Shown in pieces: positions 2,377 to 29,004 of a stretch of DNA of 32,000 nt (its first letter is position 1; each line of letters begins with the position of its first letter). This DNA is from Fibrobacter succinogenes subsp. succinogenes S85 (GTDB taxonomy: Bacteria; Fibrobacterota; Fibrobacteria; Fibrobacterales; Fibrobacteraceae). The stretch spans positions 690,001-722,000 of the forward strand of contig NC_017448.1 of assembly GCF_000146505.1 (NCBI RefSeq), in the 5' to 3' direction. The notes below the pieces were generated by a model. The model did not search any database and had not been told where the DNA came from. It saw only the letters and a program-made list of their open reading frames with translations. Both the position numbers and the translations under genes were made by a program.

Positions 2377-3063
2377 TTATTTCTTTACGATTCTCAGAAC
2401 GCCCTGTTTGTTGAATTCAGGGGCATCCTTGGAGAAGAGCGTCTTCGTTTCTTGACGGAGCGTGTAGCGTTCGCCCTCGCCCCAGTCAATGACACTTCCA
2501 GACTTTGCCGGAACGCCATCACCAAACAAGCTATCTGCCGCCATCAAGAGAGCCTCTTCCGGGTCTTCAATCGTATTCGAGATGCACAAGTCCGGCAACG
2601 TAAACACAGCCAAACCAAGCGTATAAAGCGAGTCACCCGAATCAAGGATGTTAATCCACGGGTCCATCGGATAATCGCAATCGCCGAACTGTTCTTCAAA
2701 AGCCTTCGCAGTCCAGGCCGTGCCAGACTGTTGCATATAAACGCCCGCGGCCTTTGCGTTGAGGACCTTCAAAATGGCGGAATTCACCATTTCAACATCG
2801 TCCATCGTCTTGACATTTCCAAGCAAGAACAAGAGAGACTTGTGATCGACAATCGCCTTTTCTTCTTCTGCGGAAAGTTCATCACGTTCCTTAAAAATTT
2901 CCAAGAGGTCGGCTGATGCGCCCTGACGCACAACATTGAACTGCACGCTGCAACCAGGAATCATCAACGTCTTAGTATCAGCATTTACCTGAACCGTTTC
3001 GGTAATGGCAAACGGTTCATTGACCGCAACGGGAATCGGGAAAGCTAAAACGAACTGGTTCAT
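2377..3063 (-). CDS. hypothetical cytoplasmic protein, last gene of the glycosyltransferase operon
   Basis: The 228-aa ORF has no signal peptide. Its ATG overlaps the stop of the upstream glycosyltransferase (ATGA at 3060-3063), indicating translational coupling. I cannot name a motif for it. Confidence 0.6.
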   Translation of the reverse strand: MNQFVLAFPIPVAVNEPFAITETVQVNADTKTLMIPGCSVQFNVVRQGASADLLEIFKERDELSAEEEKAIVDHKSLLFLLGNVKTMDDVEMVNSAILKVLNAKAAGVYMQQSGTAWTAKAFEEQFGDCDYPMDPWINILDSGDSLYTLGLAVFTLPDLCISNTIEDPEEALLMAADSLFGDGVPAKSGSVIDWGEGERYTLRQETKTLFSKDAPEFNKQGVLRIVKK

Positions 3064-4301
3064 ATCAACCTCTCTTTAAATTTTCGAACAACATCTTCAA
3101 CCGCATCGTGAAGCAAATTTTGCTTTTCGACCTTCGGCATTTTCACGGACTTTTCGAAAGCGCTTGTGAGCGTTTCGGCAGAGAGTTCATCCGCCGGAAT
3201 TTCAACGGCATAGCCCGCCTTCGACAAATCGTGAGCGAGGACAATCTGTTCAAACTGTCCTGGCGTCGGTACAAAGATACATTTTGCGCCAAGTTCCGCC
3301 ATGTCCATCACCGTGCTGTAACCGCCTCGGCTCACCACAAAATCGGCTCGTTTCACAGCTTCTGCAAAATCGTTCGTCGCCAAATGCGTATGGAACTCGA
3401 TATTTCCTTCAGTCCACGTTTTTTGCTCCGCCGAAGGCTTCCCGAGAATCATCATGTGGCGCCCAGGAATCTGCGCCAATGCATCACGCAGCTGCTGTTC
3501 GAACTGCGTACGTGCAGGCTCCACCCCCGATACAACCGCCACGACCTTGTAGTTTGCGCGCATTTCAAAAGAGTGGTTTCCAGAAGTACGCTTTTCAGGA
3601 GCAGCGTCCCATTCTACATTCGCCGAGTGCGCCATAAACTCCGACATGCTCATCAAGTCCACCTCTCGTTCGAGGTCGACCGGCGCCGGCGCATTCCCAA
3701 GCGCGTTTCCATCATTCCCCATCTCCGAGAATCTCGAAAGCGTCCCGACGAAACGCATCGGCTTATCGCCTGGCGTCGCGCCCGAATGCGAAAGCGAGCC
3801 CGCATAGCCTGGATAAATTTCCAAATCCGGCACCCAGACTTCATCGAACTTGCGCATGATGTTCGCATGCCACATCACGCCAATGCGTTCAAACGCAGCA
3901 AAAGCCCGCGGGAACGCAATCCTGCGTTGGTGCGTCATGTAAATGCTAAGCGCCTTCTTGGAATAAAATGCGAATCGGTTGTCCGAAAACAGCACATCGT
4001 AGCCGTGGCGTTTTACCATCTCTTCGGCAAAGTGGTGTTCGTAACGCATCACGGCATTCAGGTGCATGCTGTTCTTGAGCAGCCAAAGCGCCATGTTGTA
4101 GCCGTGCTTCGGGTAGACAATGTTGTAGCTCGGCGCCAAGCGCTGTCGCAAATCCGGGAATACTTCACGGAAAAAATTGGCGTTCGCCTTGACTACCGCC
4201 AGTTCCACCTCGGCACCCGCCCGCAAGAATTCGCGGACAACAGGCACGCAACGAGTCGCATGCCCAAGTCCCCAATCAAGCGGCGCTACAAGGACTTTCA
4301 C
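3060..4301 (-). CDS. GT-B fold glycosyltransferase (MurG/UDP-glycosyltransferase-like)
   Basis: The 413-aa ORF starts VLVAPLDWGLGHATRC (Gly-rich loop plus His). The C-terminal half has SRGGYSTVMDMAELG, typical of GT1/GT28-like enzymes. Its GTG start overlaps the upstream stop (GTGA 4298-4301). Confidence 0.75.
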   Translation of the reverse strand: MKVLVAPLDWGLGHATRCVPVVREFLRAGAEVELAVVKANANFFREVFPDLRQRLAPSYNIVYPKHGYNMALWLLKNSMHLNAVMRYEHHFAEEMVKRHGYDVLFSDNRFAFYSKKALSIYMTHQRRIAFPRAFAAFERIGVMWHANIMRKFDEVWVPDLEIYPGYAGSLSHSGATPGDKPMRFVGTLSRFSEMGNDGNALGNAPAPVDLEREVDLMSMSEFMAHSANVEWDAAPEKRTSGNHSFEMRANYKVVAVVSGVEPARTQFEQQLRDALAQIPGRHMMILGKPSAEQKTWTEGNIEFHTHLATNDFAEAVKRADFVVSRGGYSTVMDMAELGAKCIFVPTPGQFEQIVLAHDLSKAGYAVEIPADELSAETLTSAFEKSVKMPKVEKQNLLHDAVEDVVRKFKERLI

Positions 4302-6838
4302 TTTTCAGCCTCAAGCCAGGCATGAGCCCAGTCGCCGTGGTCGCAGTCCTTGTCGTTGCCCATCAACACGCGCAAATTAATCGACTTTGCGCCCTTGATA
4401 TTGAGTCTCAGGCGTTCCTTGTCTGTCGTATAAAGTTTCTTGGAATGGTAAATTTCACGACCATCCGCTTCAACGGCAAAGTAGGCTCCATCGCCACAGG
4501 CACTTTCGTCATCAAGGCCAATGACCACGTTCAGCCAATCGTAACCGCGAGAAAGCGGGAATTCAATCGCCGAATTGGCATGACTACCGATACCATAGCG
4601 GAACGGTTCACCGTCAATCGTAATCTTGTGATGATCCACAGTCTCGTTCATCTGCGGTTCGCCCCATTCCTGGAAGAACTTGCCCATCTTGAGCTTCGAG
4701 AGGAGCGCCACATTTTCACCCTCGACAAAGAAGTCGCGGTACGTCACAAGCGTATCTTCGTCCGGCATGTAGCAGCTCAGCACAACGCGGTTCAAGCCCG
4801 CACGAATCTTGGCAGAATCGAGTTGCAGCGTGTCAGCGCTTTGCGACACGAGCATTTCGCCCTGGTCCTTGTCGTTCACCTTGTAATCGCAGGCAATCGA
4901 TTCCGGGAAGCGCTTGTTCACGACAATCATGCCGTTCGTTTCTTCGCTCACCATGAAGTTCTGCGCATAATGCGACACACCCTTCTTCGAGATAATCTTG
5001 TAAATAGCAAGGCCATAACCGAAAAGACGGGCTTCCATCAGCACGCGTTCGTTCTTGTAATCGCTCAGGATATCATCAATCTGGTCGGTCGTCTTGAAGC
5101 CCACCACACGGCTATTGCGATTCACCTTGCCGTAGCCATCCTGGCCGCGCACAAGATAAATATTGCCTCCAGACTTTTGCATCCATTCAGCAAACTTTTC
5201 GGTGCTCCAGCTCTTAAAGGAACTTTCGCTAAACGAAGTATGGCCCGATGCCAGCATCTGCCACGGTCTTGCGTAAATGAACACGGAATTCTTCGGATAC
5301 TTCGCCAGTTCCGTATTCAAGAAGTCTTCTTCGGCCAAGAGCTTGTTCTTGTAATAGAGCATGTTCGCCTTGTAGCTCGGGGCATGGTAAAGCATGAGCC
5401 CGATAGACAAAAGGCAAGCAAACCCCGCCACAATCTTTGCAGCAGCATCGCTCTTCATCTTCGTCGTAAACACGAGTGCATCGTAAAGGCCGAGCGCCAT
5501 CAAGAGCGCAAACAGCGGGAGCGCCACAAGCACATAGCGCTGGTTGATATCAATCGTAAACGTTCCAGACACGTTCAGGAGAATCACAAAAATCTGCACG
5601 CAGAACGTGATGCCCAAGATAAATCCGCGCACGTAACGGCGAGAGTAAATCATGCGGAACAGGAGCCAAACCGTTGCCAAAAGCAAAATCACGGTAAACG
5701 TCGTGTAGAACGGATTTTCCATGATACCGCCAAAAGCAGAATCCGGCTTGAGATTCATCATGACTTCGATGTTCGTCTTGAGGTTGAACCACAAGTTTTC
5801 AAAAGAGTGCGCCGCATGCGTACCACCCTGGAAGTCGTACCCACGATAAGCAGCCATCGTGTTGATCGAAGGCCAGCTCACTGCAATCACCGACGCCACA
5901 AAGGCTGGCAAACGGTACGGCTTTTCAAGGAAGTAACGGTAATAGTAAAGCGCAAACGGGATAAACGCAAATACAGTTTCCTGGCGGGTCTGCGCAAAGA
6001 ATCCAAGCAGCGGAACCGTCAAGAGGAAATGCTTCCACGTGACCTTGTTCGTCGGCACAAACGCGTACCACGCCATAAGCACTGCAAGCAAGAGGATGTA
6101 GAGGACTTCGGTCGATGCGGAGCGCGACTGCAACAGGTAAATCGGCATGCCGCCCAAGAACGCCGTCGCCGCAAGCGCAAGCTTATCGCTCTTGAACCAC
6201 TTGCTAAGCGCAAGGAAGAACGCAATCAAGCTCAAGATGTAGAACGGATAGTTCACCATCAGCGCAGAATCGCGATTCGGTTCCATGAAGTTGAACACAA
6301 GCGAATAGACAAAGCCTAGCGCCTTGCCCTTGAAGTTGTTCACTTCGGTCTTGCAATCGAGAACGCCATCTGTCCAGACGCCTTCGTTACAGACACCGCC
6401 CGTGTGCTGGAAATACATCTGGAGGCCCATCGATTCCCAGCTCGTCTCGTCACTCAAGACACGGTGCGTATTGCCGATGTTCCCGAAAATGAACACCGAG
6501 AACACGATGAGCAAAAGGGCTAGCCCACAAAAGCTCTTGCCACTCGGCAAGAACCCGCGCACATGTTTAGCCACAAACGGAGCATTGACAACAACACCCG
6601 CCACGAGCAACAGGAACGTGGCAAGAATCGAGTAATACCCCCACTGGATATCCCAATGGCGCGCATACGGCACGGATAAATTGTTAAAGATAAGGAAAGC
6701 AGCCACGAGCACGAACATCGTAACCGCCAACATGATATTCTGAGGTTTATCCCAATGAAGGGAATTCTTCCATTCCATAAAGGACTGACGCAAAGACTTA
6801 GACTTTACACCGTCCCTTCCTAACGTTTCTTTTTTCAT
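4298..6838 (-). CDS. GT-C (PMT/ArnT-like) integral-membrane glycosyltransferase fused to a C-terminal NPCBM-like carbohydrate-binding domain
   Basis: The 846-aa ORF has about 500 N-terminal residues with 10 or more hydrophobic helices. It carries a DE motif in the first loop (VLSDETSWE), as in GT39/GT83 enzymes. The last ~150 aa (GIGSHANSAIEFPL...VIGLDDESACGDG...DHGDWAHAWLE) fit the NPCBM/NEW2 pattern. Confidence 0.7.
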   Translation of the reverse strand: MKKETLGRDGVKSKSLRQSFMEWKNSLHWDKPQNIMLAVTMFVLVAAFLIFNNLSVPYARHWDIQWGYYSILATFLLLVAGVVVNAPFVAKHVRGFLPSGKSFCGLALLLIVFSVFIFGNIGNTHRVLSDETSWESMGLQMYFQHTGGVCNEGVWTDGVLDCKTEVNNFKGKALGFVYSLVFNFMEPNRDSALMVNYPFYILSLIAFFLALSKWFKSDKLALAATAFLGGMPIYLLQSRSASTEVLYILLLAVLMAWYAFVPTNKVTWKHFLLTVPLLGFFAQTRQETVFAFIPFALYYYRYFLEKPYRLPAFVASVIAVSWPSINTMAAYRGYDFQGGTHAAHSFENLWFNLKTNIEVMMNLKPDSAFGGIMENPFYTTFTVILLLATVWLLFRMIYSRRYVRGFILGITFCVQIFVILLNVSGTFTIDINQRYVLVALPLFALLMALGLYDALVFTTKMKSDAAAKIVAGFACLLSIGLMLYHAPSYKANMLYYKNKLLAEEDFLNTELAKYPKNSVFIYARPWQMLASGHTSFSESSFKSWSTEKFAEWMQKSGGNIYLVRGQDGYGKVNRNSRVVGFKTTDQIDDILSDYKNERVLMEARLFGYGLAIYKIISKKGVSHYAQNFMVSEETNGMIVVNKRFPESIACDYKVNDKDQGEMLVSQSADTLQLDSAKIRAGLNRVVLSCYMPDEDTLVTYRDFFVEGENVALLSKLKMGKFFQEWGEPQMNETVDHHKITIDGEPFRYGIGSHANSAIEFPLSRGYDWLNVVIGLDDESACGDGAYFAVEADGREIYHSKKLYTTDKERLRLNIKGAKSINLRVLMGNDKDCDHGDWAHAWLEAEK

Positions 6839-7043: not shown

Positions 7044-7694
7044 ATGTTTTACAAACATTGGAAAAAGATTTCACTTGCACTTACCGGATTTTTCTGGGCC
7101 AGTTGCGATAGCGGCACAACCACGGAACCTCCTCTTTATGGAGCCCCTCCACAATATTCCAGAAGTTCAGAAATACAAAACTCAAGCTCCAGCAGCGAAG
7201 ATAAAATATCAAGCAGTTCCGAACCATTGCCTATGCCCGCCTACGGCGTGCCGCAAATGGATTGCGAAGTCACCTCCGAAAGCGATTTAACGGTCACTTG
7301 CGAAAACGGATATACCTGCACAGCCAAAACAGATACAGTCCATGTTTCCGCCCCTGCATGTGAAACATTTAACGGCACAACAATATGCCCCGCTTACGGT
7401 GTAGACGCAGATGTCTTTATAAAAAAATACGAATGCAACGACGGCTTCACCTACGACGATACAGAATTCAAAAAAATCTACAAGACGCTTTCCTGCACAT
7501 TTAAAGGCAGCGAAATTGAAAACACAGTTCCTCCAAAAGCATATCACGACTATGAATGCAATGATGGGGCTTTCTGTTATTCCGAACAAGGAACTGAAAA
7601 AACAACCTTCAATTGCATCGACACACAAGGCAACGAAATAACTTACACCGAAGACGAATTTAAAGCAATGTACAATGTAAAGGAACCAGAATGA
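7044..7694 (+). CDS. Cys-rich lipoprotein, paralog A of the radical-SAM-associated trio
   Basis: I chose the internal ATG at 7044 with a GAGGAG SD at 7032-7037. The track ORF begins at 6954 but has no signal peptide there. The leader MFYKHWKKISLALTGFFWASC is followed by a Ser-rich linker, 10 Cys, YGAP/YGVP/YGVD motifs and two ECNDG modules. Confidence 0.8.
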   Translation: MFYKHWKKISLALTGFFWASCDSGTTTEPPLYGAPPQYSRSSEIQNSSSSSEDKISSSSEPLPMPAYGVPQMDCEVTSESDLTVTCENGYTCTAKTDTVHVSAPACETFNGTTICPAYGVDADVFIKKYECNDGFTYDDTEFKKIYKTLSCTFKGSEIENTVPPKAYHDYECNDGAFCYSEQGTEKTTFNCIDTQGNEITYTEDEFKAMYNVKEPE

Positions 7695-8545
7695 ACATTC
7701 GTAAGCATTGGAAAAATCTTTTACTCACGACCACCGCCTTTTTCTGGGCGGGGTGTAATGGCGATAGCGTCACGGAATCAGGTTGCCCATGCTACAACGG
7801 TTCTGGGATAAGTTCCGAAGCATCAAGTTCCAGCGAAAGCGTTGAGAGCTCTAGTTCTAGCGAAGCCGTTGCATCATCAAGTTCCGAGTCGGCAAGCTCC
7901 AGTAGCGCAAACGGATCCAGTTCCAGCGAAGTGACATGCGCGCCAGGTGATTCGCTCGTATCGTATTACCCGCCGAGCTATTCAGCCGATATTGCCAAGA
8001 TGAACGCTGAAGAAAAAGCAAAGCACGCAAGCGTTAGCAAAATCGACAGCATTTCAAATACATTGCAAACGGTTCCGCAATGTCTCGCCGATTTGCGCCA
8101 GGAACTCAACATGTTTGTTGCGCTATACGGCGCCCCGATGAAGTTCAACAAAAACGAAGTTTGCAGCGATGGCACCACCCGCCCCACACAGGAATACCTT
8201 GATTACCTGAAAATGAAAGAGGAATGGGAAAGGAACAAACCCGCACTTGACGCAGAATGCCAAAAGATTTACGAAGACAAGTTGAAAGAAATCGAGCAGA
8301 CCATCAAAGAATGCATTGCAACATCAAACCCCAACACGGATTTGACCGTTTGCGATTTTGACGCCATGTGCCCCGAATACGGTGTAGATTCAAAATGCAC
8401 TTACAAATACACCTGCAATGACGGAGTCACCTGCCGCAGAACCGAAGGCGAAACCAATATGGTTTGCACCGACAAGCAAGGCGAAAAAACAACCTACACA
8501 AAAAAAGATTTCGACAAGAAATATTACACCAAAGAAAATTATTAG
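7691..8545 (+). CDS. Cys-rich lipoprotein, paralog B (long Ser/Glu-rich linker)
   Basis: The ATG overlaps the stop of A (ATGA 7691-7694). The leader is MNIRKHWKNLLLTTTAFFWAGC. A ~45-aa Ser/Glu low-complexity linker follows. The C-terminus has a CPEYGVD...YTCNDGVTC...TDKQGEKTTYTKKDF module homologous to the C-terminus of A. Confidence 0.85.
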   Translation: MNIRKHWKNLLLTTTAFFWAGCNGDSVTESGCPCYNGSGISSEASSSSESVESSSSSEAVASSSSESASSSSANGSSSSEVTCAPGDSLVSYYPPSYSADIAKMNAEEKAKHASVSKIDSISNTLQTVPQCLADLRQELNMFVALYGAPMKFNKNEVCSDGTTRPTQEYLDYLKMKEEWERNKPALDAECQKIYEDKLKEIEQTIKECIATSNPNTDLTVCDFDAMCPEYGVDSKCTYKYTCNDGVTCRRTEGETNMVCTDKQGEKTTYTKKDFDKKYYTKENY

Positions 8546-8560
8546 TTTTACCACCTAATC

Positions 8561-8965
8561 ATGTTATACAAACACTGGAAAAAATTTTTTCTTTCGGTAC
8601 TCGCACTTTTCTGGAGCGGGTGTGAAAACGAGGACGACGCAGTCGCTAGTTATGGATGTTTCCCGACCCAATGCTACAACACTACGGCCACAAACGATTT
8701 AGGAGAAGTCTTTGATATCATCGAATGCGATGATGGATACAAATACCTAAGACAATCGGGGATTTATTACGAACATCCAGAATTGCAAGAAAAATTACCT
8801 GAGGGCGTTGAAGCAATAACTCCTCCAGCAGGTTCTTGTGGAGCAAGTAACTGCACAAACAAAGGTCCTGATTACTGCTACAAGGAATCTAAAAAAACAT
8901 TAGAAGGTACGACGCAAGAATACGAAGTTTGCGTCCCCTCCATCGACTGCCCTGAGAAACACTAA
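8561..8965 (+). CDS. Cys-rich lipoprotein, paralog C (short form)
   Basis: The 134-aa ORF has the leader MLYKHWKKFFLSVLALFWSGC, a YGCFP motif 11 aa after the lipobox Cys, an ECDDG module and 8 further Cys. Confidence 0.8.
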   Translation: MLYKHWKKFFLSVLALFWSGCENEDDAVASYGCFPTQCYNTTATNDLGEVFDIIECDDGYKYLRQSGIYYEHPELQEKLPEGVEAITPPAGSCGASNCTNKGPDYCYKESKKTLEGTTQEYEVCVPSIDCPEKH

Positions 8966-8986
8966 CCTTTTCTACCACCTATTATT

Positions 8987-10063
8987 ATGCAACTTTCGCT
9001 TAAAAAGAAACTCGCTCTCGAAGCTTATCGTCTTTACCGCCACAACGAAATCAAGGCACACCCGCTCACATACTTTTTCTGGGAATGCACACTCCGCTGC
9101 AACTTGCACTGTTTGCACTGCGGTAGCGACTGCGTCAAGGACGCCATCCCCGATATGCCCCGCGAAGACTTTATGGCCGTGCTCGACAAGCTCACCCCGC
9201 ACATTGACCCGAAGCACTTTATCGTGGTGATTACCGGCGGCGAACCGCTCATGCGCCCGGACCTCGAAGAATGTGGCCAAGAAATCAAGAAGCGCGGCTA
9301 CCCCTGGGGCATGGTCACGAACGGTCTTGCAATGACTCCCGAGCGCTACACGCGCCTTTTGAACGCAGGGCTCCGCTCGCTCACCATCAGCCTCGATGGT
9401 CTCGAAGCAAGCCACAACCATTTCCGTGGCGACCCGCATAGTTTTGAACGAGCCCTCCGCGCCATCGACATGGCGGCCCACACGCAAGGACTCACCTTCG
9501 ACGTGATGACCTGTGTGAACCGCGAAAACCTCAAGGAACTCCCGAAAATCTTGGACATGCTTTTGAAAATCGGTGTGAAGCGCTGGCGCGTTGCGACCGT
9601 ATTCCCCAAAGGCCGCGCCAAGGACAATCCGCTGTTCCAACTTACGAACCAGGAATTCCGCCAAGTGTTCGACTTTATCCGCGAAGTAAAATCGATGAAC
9701 GTCATCAACGTGAATTACGGCTGCGAAGGATTCCTCGGCAGCTACGAGAAAGACGCACGCAATTACCCGTTCTTCTGCCGCGCAGGCGTAAACGTCTCTT
9801 CCGTGCTCTGCGACGGAAGTATCTCGGCTTGCCCGAGCTTGCGCGGCGACTACATCCAAGGAAACATCTACAAGGACGACATTTGGGACGTGTGGCAGAA
9901 CCGCTACCAAGTGATGCGCGACCGCAGTTGGGCAAAAATCGGCGACTGCAAGACCTGCAAGTACTGGCGCTACTGCGAAGGCTCCAGCCTGCACCTCAGA
10001 GACGAGAAAACAAAAGAGCTCGCCTACTGCCATGTGCAGCGATTAGAGGCTGCTGGGGCATAA
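8987..10063 (+). CDS. radical SAM enzyme with SPASM/twitch-type C-terminal Cys cluster
   Basis: The 358-aa ORF has CNLHCLHC (C-x3-C-x2-C), GGEPLM and TNG motifs. The C-terminus has CRAG-x9-C...C and CKTCKYWRYC (C-x2-C-x5-C). It lies 21 nt after lipoprotein C. Confidence 0.88.
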   Translation: MQLSLKKKLALEAYRLYRHNEIKAHPLTYFFWECTLRCNLHCLHCGSDCVKDAIPDMPREDFMAVLDKLTPHIDPKHFIVVITGGEPLMRPDLEECGQEIKKRGYPWGMVTNGLAMTPERYTRLLNAGLRSLTISLDGLEASHNHFRGDPHSFERALRAIDMAAHTQGLTFDVMTCVNRENLKELPKILDMLLKIGVKRWRVATVFPKGRAKDNPLFQLTNQEFRQVFDFIREVKSMNVINVNYGCEGFLGSYEKDARNYPFFCRAGVNVSSVLCDGSISACPSLRGDYIQGNIYKDDIWDVWQNRYQVMRDRSWAKIGDCKTCKYWRYCEGSSLHLRDEKTKELAYCHVQRLEAAGA

Positions 10064-10102
10064 TATTACAATGTCTCCCCGTCCCCATAACCAATAAAAA
10101 CA

Positions 10103-10135
10103 AAAGACGCCCGATCCAAAGAACCGAGCGTCTTT
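10103..10135. terminator. bidirectional hairpin between convergent genes
   Basis: aaagacgc (10103-10110) pairs with gcgtcttt (10128-10135). It is A-rich upstream and T-containing downstream. It sits between the radical SAM stop (10063) and the minus-strand lipoprotein stop (10157). Confidence 0.5.
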
Positions 10136-10156
10136 CAATTTCAAACGTATTCCGAA

Positions 10157-11059
10157 TTACTTGGCTTCGAAATAGTAAGTCTGGAGAGTCTTTCCGTCCT
10201 GGGAGAGCTGGATAATCTGCTTGCCCTTCGGGAGGTTGCCAGAAATCTTGTAGAGGTTTTCAGCAACGTATTCGACCTTGAGATCGGTTGCCTTGTCCTT
10301 GACCGGGAACACGCCCTTCGTTTCGCCTGCGCCAAAGCCCTTGCAGTCCTTGTGAGAAGCGATCGGAGCGACGACAGCCGGATAGGTCTTAGCAGTGATT
10401 GCGGTAGACACGGAAGAAGAGTTGTGGTAGAACACTTCGAGTTTGCCTTCGACGACTCGCGGATCCGGGAGGTTCGTCACAGCAGCTGCGACCTGAGCGA
10501 CCGGAGCGGCCTTCCTAGCCTTCTTGCCCTTCTTGCCTTTCTTCTTGACACCAATCTTTTCAGCAAGGCTTGCCTTTGCATCACCAGCCTGCTGCTGCGG
10601 CATAGTCAAGCGGTAACCAGCAATGGATTCATCGCAGTTCGTGGAGTAGACAACCCACTTGTTATCGATCTTGAGCGGGCCTTCCGGAGTACCCTGGTAC
10701 AGACCCGGATCAACCTGGGCGCTGTAAATGTAAAGAATGAGAGAAGCGTTCGGATTCTGTTCCGTCGTTTCAATCTTCATACGGGTCTTCACGTACTTGG
10801 AACGACCTGCATAAACTCTATAAGCGCCAACCGGAACCTTGACGAACTTGAACTTGCCCTTGCGGAGTTCCTGGTTGAATTCGTACTTCTTGGAAAGAGT
10901 GGTGTAAATCGTGGAGTCCATACCGACGGTCGGCATTTCCAACGGCTTGTTGGTGAAAGCATCACGAACTTCACCTTCGATGGTACCAGTCTTACCGTTA
11001 TCGCAACCAGTCATAGCAAGAGCGATGATGGCAGCGGCACAAATGCTAAGTTTTTTCAT
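10157..11059 (-). CDS. lipoprotein with N-terminal carboxypeptidase-regulatory-like fold and a Lys-rich insert
   Basis: The 300-aa ORF has the signal/lipobox MKKLSICAAAIIALAMTGC. The segment GTIEGEVRDAFTNKPL resembles the start of a CarboxypepD_reg-like beta-sandwich. It has an internal KKKGKKGKKARKAAP tract and a GAGGAC SD upstream. Confidence 0.7.
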   Translation of the reverse strand: MKKLSICAAAIIALAMTGCDNGKTGTIEGEVRDAFTNKPLEMPTVGMDSTIYTTLSKKYEFNQELRKGKFKFVKVPVGAYRVYAGRSKYVKTRMKIETTEQNPNASLILYIYSAQVDPGLYQGTPEGPLKIDNKWVVYSTNCDESIAGYRLTMPQQQAGDAKASLAEKIGVKKKGKKGKKARKAAPVAQVAAAVTNLPDPRVVEGKLEVFYHNSSSVSTAITAKTYPAVVAPIASHKDCKGFGAGETKGVFPVKDKATDLKVEYVAENLYKISGNLPKGKQIIQLSQDGKTLQTYYFEAK

Positions 11060-17600: not shown

Positions 17601-18542
17601 CTATTTGTCTTTCGGCTTGTACGGACGCAAGACAATTTCATCGTCATCCGTCTGCGTCGGTTTTTCTACAGCCCGGCCAAAGGTCGGCATTCTAGGAACG
17701 GCAGTCGCCACACGCGGGCGAGCAAACGGCGAAGACATGGCACCCTTCTGGAACAAGCCAGAACCGGCACCGCCGGAGTTCGACATATTAGCCTGCGGTT
17801 TTGCGGCAAACGACGGCATGCGGAACGGGGAGGTCGGCTGCTGCGGAGCGGCAGATTCGTTCTGCGGTTTGCCCGCATCGGCATTTTGAGCCGGAGCATC
17901 ACTTGCAGTCGGAGCTGCTGCGGCAGCATTTACAGCGGCCTTACGCAAGAACCCCTGTTTGACGTTAAACTTTTCAATCACCAACATAGCGATCGTCTTA
18001 AGCGTTGTCACGACGCCCTTACCGTTATGGGCTGTCGCCGGGAAGAACTGGATTTTCTTGTCTGGATTGAGCATTTCATTCATCTCATCCAGAGTAAAGA
18101 CGTTGTCCATATCGCGCTTGTTGTACTGCAACACGAATGGGATATCGTCCAAGTTCATGCCATAGTCCTGCAAGTTTTGGCGCAGGTTCTGGAGGCTTTC
18201 CAAGTTTTCGGCCTGACGGGAACGTTGGGAGTCCGCTACAAAGACAATCCCATCGACACCGCGAAGAACGAGCTTACGCGTACTGTTGTAGTAAACCTGA
18301 CCAGGAACGGTATAAAGCTGGAAGCGGGTCTTAAAACCCTTGATGTCGCCCAAGTTCAAAGGCAAAAAGTCAAAGAACAAGGTTCTATCACCTTCTGTAG
18401 CAAGCGAGACCATGTCCGTTCGCTTGTCTTGGGGCATTTTCTGATGGATAACCTGAAGATTTGTGGTTTTACCACTTAAACCAGGACCATAATAAACGAC
18501 CTTACAACTAATTTCTCTTGTAGCAAAATTAATAGACGACAT
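17601..18542 (-). CDS. mglA: MglA-type Ras-like GTPase with a ~120-aa low-complexity C-terminal extension
   Basis: I chose the ATG at 18542 with an AAGGAA SD. The N-terminal ~195 aa align by eye almost continuously with Myxococcus MglA. Shared elements are MSxINxxxREIxCKxVYYGPGLxGKTTNL, DRTLFFDFLP, GFKTRFxLYTVPGQV, VFVADSQ and QYNKRD. The tail is Ala/Pro/Gln-rich. Confidence 0.88.
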   Translation of the reverse strand: MSSINFATREISCKVVYYGPGLSGKTTNLQVIHQKMPQDKRTDMVSLATEGDRTLFFDFLPLNLGDIKGFKTRFQLYTVPGQVYYNSTRKLVLRGVDGIVFVADSQRSRQAENLESLQNLRQNLQDYGMNLDDIPFVLQYNKRDMDNVFTLDEMNEMLNPDKKIQFFPATAHNGKGVVTTLKTIAMLVIEKFNVKQGFLRKAAVNAAAAAPTASDAPAQNADAGKPQNESAAPQQPTSPFRMPSFAAKPQANMSNSGGAGSGLFQKGAMSSPFARPRVATAVPRMPTFGRAVEKPTQTDDDEIVLRPYKPKDK

Positions 18543-18710
18543 TATAATTCCTTGAAACCCAGTACTTAATCTAGTAAAAAAGTTCATTAAACCAAAAAGA
18601 ATTTTTTGATTTTTGCCCTTTTTTAATCAAAATCACAATTTTTTCGTCTACAAGCAGAGGAAATATCCCCCAAGAAACCACCTGCCGTATTTCTTTCAAA
18701 AGTTCAGGAT

Positions 18711-28074: not shown

Positions 28075-28105
28075 ACGAAGTGAGCATTTTGTCTAATCTC
28101 GCTAT
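28075..28105 (+). repeat. second degenerate tRNA-Pro T-arm/acceptor fragment
   Basis: This fragment is acgaagtgag-cattttgtct-aatctcgctat. Both gtgag and the 11-mer aatctcgctat match the tRNA. The acgaagtgag prefix is shared with 27940-27949. Confidence 0.6.
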
Positions 28106-29004
28106 AAATTCTTTCCGCACCCAAATCGTCTTTCCGGATTCGGGCAATGATCTTCATGACCATCGGGCCAAACCCAAACTTCATCTGCAAACGGACATGA
28201 TTCGCACTTACCGCCAACAGCGCAAAGATCTACGCTATCACTAAAAAACAGACTTCCTTCATGCTTCACACTCAAAGCAGAATACACTCCCGACCGAAAC
28301 TCATTGCGCAAAGATTCTAGCTGCGCATCATCTAGCGCATACATTTCACGGAGCTCTTGCGAAGAGACGCTCAACACAACCACTTTATTCCACTTGATTC
28401 TGTCAATTCCAATCGCAGAAGCCCATGACACAATCTCCGGCACTTCGTGCAAATTCTTTTTATGCAGCGTCACTTGCAGCGATACCGTCGCGCATCTCGC
28501 ATTCTCACGCAGTCTATCGCGCACCCGAACCAACTTTTCAACGTTCGCTTTCCAACCGTCAAACTGTTCCGAAGCCAAATAGCTTACTTTGATATCGCGG
28601 CACGAACGCAATAGCACGCCCATCGCGTCTTCGCTCCCCCACTTTCCAGGGAACGTCCCATTCGTCGTGAGGTTCAACGGAATTCCAAGCGCCCTGCACA
28701 ACTCCAGCAGTTCGTCAAAATGCGAATAGAGTAATGGCTCCCCCATTGTCGAAGGAATTACTTCTCGCAGCAAGCGTTTACCCGAAGCATCTCGTTCGGC
28801 GGCATACTTTTCAACCGCCGCACGAGCAATTTCAAAATTCATCTCGCCCATGCCGAACGCGCAGCGGCCCCTATTATTATCCGGCGGGCGTTCCCCGTTA
28901 CAATTAGACTCGCCACAATTAAGCAAAGCCCGCTGGTTCAAAAAACACAGCGGACAATGCAAATTGCAAGCGTCAGGATTTGTAAGAAGCGTAATGCGAC
29001 GCAT
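28102..29004 (-). CDS. radical SAM protein with Cys-rich insert and C-terminal auxiliary Cys motif
   Basis: The 300-aa ORF has CNLHCPLC (C-x3-C-x2-C), MGEPLL and LTTNGT motifs. The C-terminus has C-x5-C-x2-C...C...C. A ~35-aa insert with 4 extra Cys directly follows the SAM cluster. Confidence 0.8.
   Translation of the reverse strand: MRRITLLTNPDACNLHCPLCFLNQRALLNCGESNCNGERPPDNNRGRCAFGMGEMNFEIARAAVEKYAAERDASGKRLLREVIPSTMGEPLLYSHFDELLELCRALGIPLNLTTNGTFPGKWGSEDAMGVLLRSCRDIKVSYLASEQFDGWKANVEKLVRVRDRLRENARCATVSLQVTLHKKNLHEVPEIVSWASAIGIDRIKWNKVVVLSVSSQELREMYALDDAQLESLRNEFRSGVYSALSVKHEGSLFFSDSVDLCAVGGKCESCPFADEVWVWPDGHEDHCPNPERRFGCGKNL

Follow-up and report, generated by a model that had tools for sequence, protein, structure and literature searches.

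The question raised by this locus is what a radical SAM (rSAM)/SPASM enzyme may do to the lipoproteins encoded directly upstream of it, and upon which residues it would act. The locus lies in a 32,000-nucleotide stretch of the Fibrobacter succinogenes subsp. succinogenes S85 genome (contig NC_017448.1, positions 690,001 to 722,000), referred to below as the window; all coordinates are those of the window. An earlier note, made from the sequence alone, had proposed three Cys-rich lipoproteins as substrates of the enzyme.

Organization of the operon

Four tightly packed open reading frames are present on the same strand, as had been claimed, three lipoprotein precursor genes being followed by the gene of the enzyme. 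The first of them starts with the ATG at 7044 and is preceded by a GAGGAG ribosome binding site. The ATGA overlap coupling A and B (7691-7694), the 15-nt gap between B and C and the 21-nt gap between C and the rSAM gene were all observed.

7044..7694, + strand: lipoprotein precursor A, 216 aa, 11 Cys, three XYG sites (ORF)
7691..8545, + strand: lipoprotein precursor B, 284 aa, 14 Cys, two XYG sites (ORF, orthologue alignment)
8561..8965, + strand: lipoprotein precursor C, 134 aa, 9 Cys, one XYG site (ORF)
8987..10063, + strand: radical SAM/SPASM enzyme of the TIGR04133 family, predicted maturase, 358 aa (ORF, TIGR04133 match)

Apart from the rSAM gene, no gene for a maturase, a protease or a transporter lies in the operon, which fits leader removal and export through the general lipoprotein pathway. 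No small RRE-like gene (Y protein) was found in it either.

Each precursor begins with a lipoprotein-type signal peptide, which would at the same time be its leader.

7044..7106, + strand: leader of A, MFYKHWKKISLALTGFFWASC, lipobox Cys21 at 7104-7106
7691..7756, + strand: leader of B, MNIRKHWKNLLLTTTAFFWAGC, Cys22 at 7754-7756
8561..8623, + strand: leader of C, MLYKHWKKFFLSVLALFWSGC, Cys21 at 8621-8623

The leaders end in ...FFWA[SG]C, which is of the lipoprotein type both by inspection and by a cross-phylum leader profile, while their n-region has the unusual, family-specific form Y-K-H-W-K-K. In case of A, the leader residues M1, Y3, W6, K7, L11, F17, W18 and C21 were invariant among 52 homologues. 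The cross-phylum profile, for which only leaders from outside Fibrobacter together with the first XYG were used, matched A (E=4e-4) and C (E=7e-4), and these two ranked first among 405 window segments. Other lipoproteins encoded in the same DNA carry ordinary leaders, and the leader of A-C is specific to this family.

The mature lipoproteins

The Cys content given before (8-13 each) corresponds to the mature parts, where 10, 13 and 8 Cys were counted in A, B and C, respectively, or 11, 14 and 9 together with the lipobox Cys. The (E/T)-C-(N/D)-D-G module described earlier was also found. The designation of the three proteins as paralogues holds in part: A and B have a C-terminal module in common (A 151-214 and B 221-282, BLASTP E=2e-8, 38% identity over 64 aa) and the leader occurs in all three, but C has only this leader in common with the others.

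7494..7685, + strand: Cys-rich C-terminal module of A, common to B (BLASTP)
8351..8536, + strand: Cys-rich C-terminal module of B, common to A (BLASTP)

In other strains, larger lipoproteins contain the mature module of C as their C-terminal domain. A matched no family of Pfam or NCBIfam, and the 710 cluster representatives among its homologues are all unnamed. In Fibrobacter the Cys positions form a conserved framework of the kind usual in disulfide-bonded extracytoplasmic modules. The AF2 model of A was weak (mean pLDDT 64), and residues 18-69 were modelled as disordered (pLDDT<50).

The enzyme and its family

The enzyme belongs to TIGR04133 (rSAM_w_lipo): it scored 628.2 bits against a cutoff of 425 (E=3.1e-189), over model positions 1-350 of 350. 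The Pfam models Radical_SAM (78.8 bits) and SPASM (32.3 bits) were also matched, and the motifs listed previously could be located, CNLHCLHC at residues 38-45, FFCRAG...C, and C321-x2-C324-x5-C330.

9098..9121, + strand: CX3CX2C radical-SAM cluster motif (C38, C42, C45), invariant in 14 cross-phylum family members
9722..10030, + strand: SPASM region with Cys 246, 264, 282, 321, 324, 330 and 348, all seven invariant in the 14 members

Neither a signal peptide nor an RRE domain was found in the enzyme by sequence or Pfam. Its identity to the orthologues of Bacteroidales, Paludibacter and Marinimicrobia was 57-60%, more than is usual among peptide maturases.

The suggestion that the lipoproteins might belong to the companion family TIGR04134 (lipo_with_rSAM) was not borne out, A, B and C giving no match at E<=1 (model cutoff 39.8 bits), while the Bacteroidales and Paludibacter neighbours used as positive control scored 80.6-108.9 bits. 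The TIGR04133 + TIGR04134 rSAM/lipoprotein system is nevertheless among the closest known systems, with the same enzyme family and putative lipoproteins encoded upstream on the same strand, and its proteins resemble A-C in leader architecture and in the XYG which follows the lipobox. The TIGR04134 proteins are about 150 aa long, usually with a single EYG, one or two Cys and a weak CarboxypepD_reg/Ig-like signal, whereas the Fibrobacter partners are modular, Cys-rich proteins of 98-490 aa with up to eight XYG, in arrays of one to six or more.

Pairing of the enzyme with XYG lipoproteins

The genome scan gave at least 594 confirmed relatives. In 76 of the relatives' loci the upstream DNA reached 600 nt or more; they cover Fibrobacter, Bacteroidales, Paludibacter and Marinimicrobia, and 75 of them carried lipoprotein genes upstream of the enzyme. 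The co-occurrence proposed as a check in the earlier note is thus supported, and the adjacency is near-universal. One to six same-strand, leader-bearing XYG lipoprotein genes were present upstream per locus, the median gap to the rSAM gene being 23 nt, and such genes were also found in all 14 of the non-Fibrobacter loci examined. When the search was started from homologues of A, a 358-aa rSAM/SPASM gene was found in each of three cases, with the lipoprotein gene zero to two genes upstream of it. The presence of three putative substrates, considered earlier as a special expansion, is not exceptional, as Fibrobacter loci hold one to six or more cassettes.

The lipoproteins at these loci have hypervariable, fast-evolving mature regions, and across phyla the mature sequences are unrelated: they comprise the TIGR04134 Ig-like proteins, peptides of 60-80 aa ending in ...PEYGVVPMYGVP... 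and the Fibrobacter Cys-rich modules. Besides the leader, [P/A]-X-Y-G-[V/I]-[P] is the sole feature that the partners have in common. The YG motif singled out by the earlier note is the conserved element across phyla and exceeds chance, and all six copies claimed were found in A, B and C.

7134..7142, + strand: XYG site A1 (PP-LYG-AP), residues 31-33, predicted modification site (motif, homologue alignment)
7239..7247, + strand: XYG site A2 (MP-AYG-VP), residues 66-68 (motif, homologue alignment)
7392..7400, + strand: XYG site A3 (CP-AYG-VD), residues 117-119, Cys-framed loop (homologue alignment)
8123..8131, + strand: XYG site B1 (VA-LYG-AP), residues 145-147 (orthologue alignment)
8375..8383, + strand: XYG site B2 (CP-EYG-VD), residues 229-231 (orthologue alignment)
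8648..8656, + strand: XYG site C1 (VA-SYG-CF), residues 30-32 (orthologue alignment)

In the 52 homologues of A, Y32 and G33 of site A1 as well as P65, Y67, G68 and V69 of site A2 were near-invariant, and both sites fall within the segment modelled as disordered. At site A3, Y118 and G119 were invariant and P116 near-invariant, X being A, L or D; the AF2 model places this site in an exposed loop between strands 112-114 and 122-131. FVALYGAP of site B1 was invariant in 6 orthologues, MCP-x-YG of site B2 was invariant with X = E, V or L, and at site C1 the YG was invariant in 5 orthologues with X = S, M, G or E.

The 167 related lipoproteins contain 423 YG pairs versus 99.6 expected from composition (approx. 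4-fold); per 100 aa they have 1.17, while 407 further ORFs from these loci have 0.30. YG.P was enriched 10.6-fold, [PA].YG[VIAC] occurred 305 times versus zero for the FG and WG versions, and P.YG.P was counted 62 times versus zero for P.YA.P and 4 for P.YS.P. Phe, Trp, Ala or Ser in place of the Y or G of the motif are almost absent. The residue following YG varies (V 204, I 47, P 42, C 36, A 33 and others), and X is frequently acidic or basic (E, D, K).

Likely chemistry at the XYG sites

Certain rSAM/SPASM enzymes, the spliceases, excise tyramine (-135 Da) at XYG and leave alpha-keto-beta-amino acids; their spliceotide products inhibit proteases and may have a flanking disulfide, and the two-component spliceases have a leader helix instead of a Y protein (PMC11414181, PMC11626197, PMC9811515, PMC10533398). 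The signature of the spliceases is a Tyr strictly followed by Gly (PMC11414181, PMC9811515), and the natural splice tags are PIRP-(L/M)-YG-LPI and AVAA-M-YG-VVFPG (PMC10533398). XYG in such a context is the published splicease target, and tyramine excision, a reaction aimed exactly at X-Y-G and absent from the earlier note, seems the most likely mechanism here. We give somewhat better than even chances to the locus being a two-component splicease-like system, with the signal peptide of the lipoproteins serving also as leader.

The known spliceotide systems (PlpX/PlpY, PcpX, RhaX/RasX, RcsX) likewise have an rSAM/SPASM enzyme beside precursors with one or several X-Y-G in a [P/A]-X-YG-[V/L]-[P/V] context, with variable cores, a conserved leader and Cys flanking the sites, and the two-component ones have no Y protein, as would apply here. 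Unlike spliceotides, the precursors here are full lipoproteins with a Sec/SPII-type signal peptide as the leader, while the spliceotide precursors have Nif11/NHLP-type leaders cut by PCAT. Tyramine loss is a property of the spliceotides and a prediction for the present system.

The sequence of the enzyme does not single out the spliceases or the PlpX family. TIGR04103, which we take to be the family of PlpX, scored 140.2 bits over the whole length of the enzyme and did not reach its cutoff of 725; it was among the top three non-self NCBIfam matches of the enzyme and of all 14 family members, tied (140) with the AhbD heme synthase (135) and TIGR04053 (139). In a review PlpX is assigned to IPR026482. 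The TIGR04103 model represents the cyanobacterial type only, the other published types having no model in the libraries used, and thus the low score leaves room for a splicease of another type. The acidic or basic X in many sites counts against the splicing reading, as does the DYG site that stayed unmodified in one characterised splicease (PMC11626197). The high identity of the enzyme across phyla, uncommon in peptide maturases, is a further point against it. At site A3, rearranging the backbone of a folded, beta-rich module might also be structurally costly.

The strongest competitor, which we regard as fairly unlikely, is that the XYG sites are modified by some other Tyr/Gly-directed radical chemistry, such as a triceptide-like C-C cyclophane from Tyr to residue+2, a C-O or C-C crosslink, beta-hydroxylation, epimerisation or the formation of a Tyr-derived redox cofactor (PQQ, mycofactocin). 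rSAM/SPASM enzymes are capable of all these reactions, models of mycofactocin, PqqE and WgkB also score against the enzyme, and the adjacency and motif conservation would fit any XYG-directed reaction. Triceptide systems, in particular, are similar in that repeated short aromatic motifs are typical of their precursors, encoded beside an rSAM/SPASM enzyme. However, cyclophanes conserve the third residue and accept Trp or Phe, while here the invariant pair is Y-G, both of its neighbours vary, and F or W never substitutes for the Tyr; a triceptide assignment, with a conserved third residue and W, F, Y or H as the aromatic one, was rejected on this ground. The Gly after Tyr is as strict as in the splicease signature (PMC11414181, PMC9811515), and the flanks match the published splice tags almost residue for residue (PMC10533398).

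There is only a slight chance that the lipoproteins are not substrates at all and that the enzyme makes a small molecule or cofactor (an AhbD- or NirJ-like heme/tetrapyrrole) which they bind, transport or need. The AhbD, NirJ and TIGR04053 models score level with those of peptide maturases, and the enzyme, which has no RRE domain, is as conserved as housekeeping enzymes are. On the other hand, no other pathway genes are nearby, and the partners have no common fold across phyla but only the leader and XYG. Genes that are translationally coupled or about 20 nt apart, with a cassette number that varies next to a constant enzyme, are moreover typical of precursor-maturase pairs.

The thioether (sactionine/ranthionine-type) or other Cys-using crosslinks proposed in the earlier note seem highly improbable, and as the conserved chemistry they are already largely refuted. 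The enzymes with 57-60% identity often have partners (Paludibacter, Marinimicrobia, Bacteroidales, Phocaeicola; 62-161 aa) in which the lipobox Cys is the only one, and the Fibrobacter Cys framework looks disulfide-bonded. In favour of the idea, A, B and C hold 8-13 mature Cys, several XYG sites are Cys-flanked (CPAYGV, MCPEYGV, SYGCF), and SPASM enzymes include sactipeptide and ranthipeptide synthases, with the StsB and PapB models matching weakly. A sactipeptide or ranthipeptide assignment, which calls for a conserved donor Cys in the substrates, was rejected on account of the lipobox-only partners.

Proposed maturation pathway

In the splicing model A, B and C would be precursors, each with a lipoprotein signal peptide that would serve as recognition or activating leader. 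Before export, the one to three [P/A]-X-Tyr-Gly-[V/A/C]-[P/D] sites of each precursor would be worked on by the cytoplasmic TIGR04133 enzyme, which would cut out the tyrosine side chain and leave reactive keto-amide residues. Sec would then export the proteins in this modified and as yet unfolded state, after which the leader would be cut off by signal peptidase II, the lipobox Cys lipidated and the Cys-rich modules disulfide-bonded. The product would be a membrane-anchored, probably surface-exposed protein with electrophilic ketoamide warheads, and its probable role would be the inhibition of external Ser or Cys proteases; the rapid turnover of the cassettes may mirror changing targets.

Among the closest known systems, anSME (the anaerobic sulfatase-maturing enzyme) and QhpD are cytoplasmic rSAM/SPASM enzymes with no RRE, which modify a short motif in a signal peptide-bearing protein before export; anSME converts Cys or Ser to formylglycine in C/S-x-P-x-R and QhpD forms Cys-Asp/Glu thioethers. 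The present enzyme is alike in having no RRE and in its predicted cytoplasmic location, but their target motifs are not conserved in the lipoproteins described here.

As a more tentative extension, which we hold to be possible rather than probable, the lipoprotein pathway could serve the TIGR04133 lineages (Fibrobacter, Bacteroidota, Marinimicrobia) as a RiPP-like back end, the signal peptide acting as maturase leader and signal peptidase II as leader protease, and the lipid-anchored alpha-keto-beta-amino-acid proteins could form a hypervariable, rapidly reshuffled surface coat of protease inhibitors. In that case tyramine splicing would for the first time have a native role tied to the cell.

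Spliceotides and the rSAM spliceases were reportedly described by Morinaka in Science in 2018. In Scott et al. 2022 (Chem) all UniProt rSAM-SPASM proteins are reported to have been screened for YG-rich neighbours, with 939 predicted systems in 189 genera, and the TIGR04133 family was likely covered there. This large, strongly conserved family of gut, rumen and environmental FCB-group bacteria is now tied to a single strict motif, X-Y-G, i.e. to defined residues for a predicted -135 Da loss. As of a 2022 review the final spliceotide products in native hosts were still elusive (PMC9811515). If tyramine splicing is true here, its products would be proteins anchored by lipid and armed with beta-amino-acid ketoamide warheads of ribosomal origin, and a major cellulose degrader of the rumen would seem to have a layer of defence against proteases. 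The leader and enzyme pairs could then also be of use in protein engineering, with export and lipidation built in.

Base composition and downstream hairpin

The lipoprotein genes are more AT-rich than the rSAM gene, as had been noticed before, with GC of 0.43, 0.47 and 0.43 in A, B and C versus 0.56, and GC3 of 0.42, 0.54 and 0.41 versus 0.72. Between the end of the operon and the convergent gene a hairpin was detected, which is likely a terminator shared by the two.

10101..10137, no strand assigned: hairpin with a 17-bp stem and T-run

The operon and its enzyme

When the open reading frames of the window were read, four same-strand genes were found where the earlier note had placed an operon of three lipoproteins (A, B and C) and a radical SAM (rSAM) enzyme:

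7044-7694, + strand: lipoprotein A, 216 aa; the ATG at 7044, preceded by GAGGAG, was taken as start
7691-8545, + strand: lipoprotein B, 284 aa; ATGA overlap with A
8561-8965, + strand: lipoprotein C, 134 aa; 15-nt gap after B
8987-10063, + strand: rSAM gene, 358 aa; 21-nt gap after C

The CNLHCLHC motif and the Cys motifs near the C-terminus were confirmed, as were all six YG motifs, the numbers of Cys residues and the (E/T)C(N/D)DG module. The AT-richness of the lipoprotein genes was confirmed too: GC3 was 0.42, 0.54 and 0.41 in A, B and C vs 0.72 in the rSAM gene, the GC content of the remaining window being 0.505. The contrast in codon usage inside this one operon is sharp (GC3 0.41-0.54 in 7044-8965, 0.72 in 8987-10063). 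The description of the lipoproteins as three paralogues holds for A and B, which have a common C-terminal Cys-rich module (E=2e-8), while C has only the leader and a YG site in common with them. Inspection of the gene content of the operon revealed no gene for a Y/RRE protein, a protease or a transporter. The promoter scan was uninformative, since it gave fewer matches than the shuffled control.

In the NCBIfam HMM search the rSAM enzyme was a full-length match to TIGR04133 (rSAM_w_lipo; 628 bits vs a cutoff of 425), and it also matched the Pfam Radical_SAM and SPASM models; the JGI annotation of the Fibrobacter enzyme already carries the rSAM/lipoprotein system label. A, B and C gave only noise against Pfam and NCBIfam, and no family was matched. 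The membership in TIGR04134 (lipo_with_rSAM) that the earlier note had raised as a question was not borne out, though the same model, as positive control, gave 80-109 bits for proteins encoded next to orthologous enzymes in Bacteroidales and Paludibacter. Judged by these searches, the enzyme belongs to the known, uncharacterised rSAM/lipoprotein system, and it is paired here with proteins of another family.

Orthologues in Paludibacter, Bacteroidales, Phocaeicola, Marinimicrobia and deep Fibrobacterota are 57-60% identical to the enzyme, and about 90 columns are invariant in the alignment across those lineages, an unusually high conservation. The Fibrobacter succinogenes and Fibrobacter sp. 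MAG loci carry the same enzyme (97% identity). Several Fibrobacter genomes have both enzyme paralogues, approx. 97% and 82% identical to the window enzyme (e.g. the numbered loci L007/L042, L019/L047 and L021/L052). A second TIGR04133 locus (L084, L086, L088, L089), whose enzyme is the approx. 82% identical paralogue, lies between the trp operon and relA/nuo, unlike the window position; its cassette number is 1 or 3 depending on the strain, with constant flanking genes.

An exhaustive search of representatives placed sub-cutoff TIGR04133-like proteins in a halo at 30-43% identity; the gene neighbourhoods inspected for four of them were short or gave no information. In two metagenomic proteins, P0143 (833 aa) and P0158 (736 aa), a pair of complete rSAM/SPASM modules lies in tandem: the module at the C-terminus is TIGR04133-like (327-336 bits), and the one at the N-terminus resembles AhbD, mycofactocin or PqqE maturases. 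In the TIGR04133-like P0160 (560 aa) the C-terminus is extended by about 220 aa that include HSHPGELDAMMSTPD, which by eye looks like a JAMM/MPN metalloprotease motif and is a candidate only; Pfam gave no match for the extension.

Co-occurrence of enzyme and lipoproteins

Scanning a single genome per species gave at least 594 confirmed relatives, of which the best 79 loci were examined. The adjacency of lipoprotein and rSAM genes noticed in the window proved general among these: of the 76 loci whose upstream DNA spans 600 nt or more, 75 have upstream same-strand, leader-bearing lipoprotein ORFs with at least one YG, the Fibrobacter loci being non-independent samples. The single exception, L065, carries no more than a 41-aa ORF made of a leader. 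The same pairing was seen in all 14 non-Fibrobacter loci. By automated count there are one to six lipoprotein ORFs per locus, the last of them separated from the rSAM gene by a median of 23 nt, and 15 loci have additional family members downstream. The reverse look-up agreed: three homologues of A on long contigs were examined, and each sits zero to two genes 5' of a 358-aa rSAM/SPASM gene, all three at the second locus between trp and relA/nuo. In total 710 homologous cluster representatives of A were found, none of them named.

Diversity of the partners

The partners carry a leader of the type M-F-Y-K-H-W-K-K-...-F-F-W-A-S-C in Fibrobacter, M-K-K-x3-K-[LF]-[FY]-D-K-[LIV]-...-C in Bacteroidales and Paludibacter, and M-K-[KR]-L-Y-K-x-W-...-G-[AS]-x-C in Marinimicrobia. 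When a profile built from non-Fibrobacter N-termini alone was run on the 405 stop-to-stop segments of the window, A and C came out on top (E=4e-4 and E=7e-4, respectively); ordinary lipoproteins of the same DNA lack the family n-region, e.g. MKKLSICAAAIIALAMTGC (10157-11059, - strand).

The mature regions are unrelated between lineages. Fibrobacter partners consist of Ser-rich linkers and shuffled Cys-rich modules, some partners (at L079, L061 and L071) of proline-rich xYGxP repeats, TIGR04134 proteins show a weak CarboxypepD_reg/Ig-like signal, and some partners are peptides of 60-80 aa, e.g. ...SCEEPEPMPEYGVVPMYGVPSTT. Between strains with 97% identical enzymes the lipoproteins are only 44-87% identical, with reshuffled modules, and the mature module of C recurs elsewhere as the C-terminal domain of larger proteins.

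The smallest partners (60-83 aa), found 5' of TIGR04133 genes in Paludibacter-like, Bacteroidales and Marinimicrobia genomes, have a leader, ...P-E-Y-G-V-V-P-[M/L]-Y-G-V-P... and a short tail, and would serve as minimal model substrates:

L092, ~3290-3480, + strand: small partner, absent from the gene calls of the source annotation
L070, 2600-2788: small partner
L073, 4351-4539: small partner
L078, 4360-4551: small partner
L072, 4745-4978: small partner
L069, 2956-3183: small partner

A lipoprotein at L042 (3779-4783; also L043 and L044) contains about four tandem 'GMIAPKYGV(V/L)MSSSSK' units and resembles a multi-core RiPP precursor. In one lineage the leader of the partners (L091, 1858-2598 and 2752-3501) is divergent and YG occurs once; these partners also match a T9SS C-terminal sorting domain weakly, below the threshold (Por_Secre_tail, 17 bits), which hints that some partners may take a different export route. 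At L080 (2328-2534) a lipoprotein (MRRRTKRWLSALALPVFLALASC...) of Asp-rich 'NDDDATG' repeats comes after a sub-cutoff TIGR04133-like enzyme; YG is absent from the sequenced part of this lipoprotein, the contig ending within its gene.

The X-Tyr-Gly site

The element common to all lineages is [I/A/V]-[V/C/A]-[P/A]-X-Y-G-[V/I/P/C/A]-[P/V/D], with an X-Tyr-Gly (XYG) core. In 167 partner proteins YG was observed 423 times vs 99.6 expected, making it the most enriched dipeptide outside the leader; its density was 1.17 per 100 aa vs 0.30 in 407 other ORFs of the same loci, and that of YG.P was 10.6-fold the density in those ORFs. Both Tyr and Gly are strictly kept: the pattern [PA].YG[VIAC] occurred 305 times and its FG and WG versions not once, while P.YG.P (62 cases) compares with none of P.YA.P and four of P.YS.P. 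In orthologue alignments YG is invariant and the preceding residue varies (CP-E/V/L-YG in B, S/M/G/E-YG in C); X is most commonly L, followed by K, E, D, A and V. When 52 homologues of A were aligned (mean column identity 27%), invariance was confined to the leader, the Cys framework and Y118-G119, with Y32-G33 and P65-x-Y67-G68-V69 near-invariant.

The AlphaFold2 model of A is of moderate quality (pLDDT 64), and Foldseek retrieved nothing meaningful for it from the PDB (best E=0.06, TM<0.2). Of its three XYG sites, two fall within residues 18-69, a disordered linker, and one within a beta-rich module, in a loop; as modelled, this arrangement is compatible with access by an enzyme working on an unfolded chain.

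Proposed modification

XYG is the published target of rSAM/SPASM spliceases (PMC11414181, PMC9811515), which excise tyramine and leave alpha-keto-beta-amino acids. The natural splice tags of PlpA, PIRP-(L/M)-YG-LPI and AVAA-M-YG-VVFPG (PMC10533398), have the same [P/A]-X-YG-[V/L]-[P/V] context as the partners described here. Non-cyanobacterial splicease systems have two components, enzyme and precursor, and an alpha-helix of the leader replaces the Y protein (PMC11414181). The window operon, with one rSAM/SPASM enzyme, no Y/RRE gene, several precursors, a conserved leader and variable XYG cores, follows the same logic, and tyramine excision is proposed on this ground; overall we consider it the best explanation and somewhat favour it. 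Tyramine (-135 Da) would be excised in the cytoplasm at L31, A66 and A117 of A, at L145 and E229 of B and at S30 of C, with Sec export and the processing of the lipoprotein as later steps. In this scheme the signal peptide would double as leader and be removed by signal peptidase II.

We infer this chemistry from the substrate motif and not from the enzyme sequence. One of the top non-self NCBIfam matches of the enzyme is TIGR04103, taken here as the model that underlies PlpX's IPR026482; it ties with AhbD and TIGR04053, so this ranking does not discriminate splicease kinship. For both reasons another Tyr/Gly-directed chemistry at XYG stays as a real rival, though a less probable one. The PDB contains no splicease structure, and the best matches of the enzyme there were BlsE, PqqE and SkfB.

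The Cys-based crosslinks considered in the earlier note are excluded as the conserved reaction of the enzyme, since in many partners of orthologous enzymes the lipobox Cys is the sole Cys. In the Fibrobacter partners the Cys residues form a conserved framework, as seen in the homologue alignment of A, and are more likely to form disulfides after export; in one spliceotide a disulfide between both core-peptide Cys residues was inferred (PMC11626197). A lipoprotein sorting signal or linker motif was rejected as a reading of XYG, since there are up to eight sites per protein, distant from the N-terminus and within Cys-framed loops.

Spliceotide products inhibit Ser and Cys proteases, for which the ketoamide is needed (PMC11626197). 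Protease inhibition may be the function of the modified lipoproteins as well, and the surface their probable location.

Relation to previous work

As an uncharacterised system, the TIGR04133/TIGR04134 pair is a long-standing annotation; knowledge of spliceases dates from 2018. In the screen of Scott et al. 2022 all UniProt rSAM-SPASM proteins were reportedly checked for YG-rich neighbours, giving 939 predicted systems in 189 genera and 27 validated pairs (PMC10533398). Very probably this screen picked up the TIGR04133 family. The literature searched, to which Scott et al. 2022 did not belong, contained no link of TIGR04133, lipoproteins or Fibrobacter with splicing and no mention of TIGR04133, and the spliceotide papers searched did not mention lipoproteins. 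Its sole mention of TIGR04134, in a T9SS review, was set aside as an apparent slip for another accession. What appears particular to this locus type is that the lipoprotein partners lie outside TIGR04134 and are modular, Cys-rich and hypervariable, that arrays of one to six or more cassettes occur at two loci, that the codon usage of the lipoprotein genes contrasts sharply with that of the enzyme gene and, by implication, that the lipoprotein signal peptide would also be used as leader.

Other features of the window

Further features of the window are as follows:

10101-10137: hairpin, 17-bp stem and T-run, between the rSAM gene and the convergent lipoprotein gene (10157-11059, - strand); probably a bidirectional terminator
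4298-6838, - strand: 846-aa polytopic membrane protein, divergent from the operon, with a C-terminal NPCBM/NEW2 domain (90.7 bits)
3060-4301: glycosyltransferase gene, preceding that of the membrane protein
28102-29004, - strand: second, unrelated radical-SAM-like ORF, 300 aa; Pfam Radical_SAM 27.5 bits, slightly below the gathering cutoff
17601-18587, - strand: 328-aa ORF

No link of the NPCBM/NEW2 protein to the cassette was found. The 328-aa ORF gave weak small-GTPase (Arf/Ras/Gtr1) matches and probably encodes a bacterial Ras-like GTPase.
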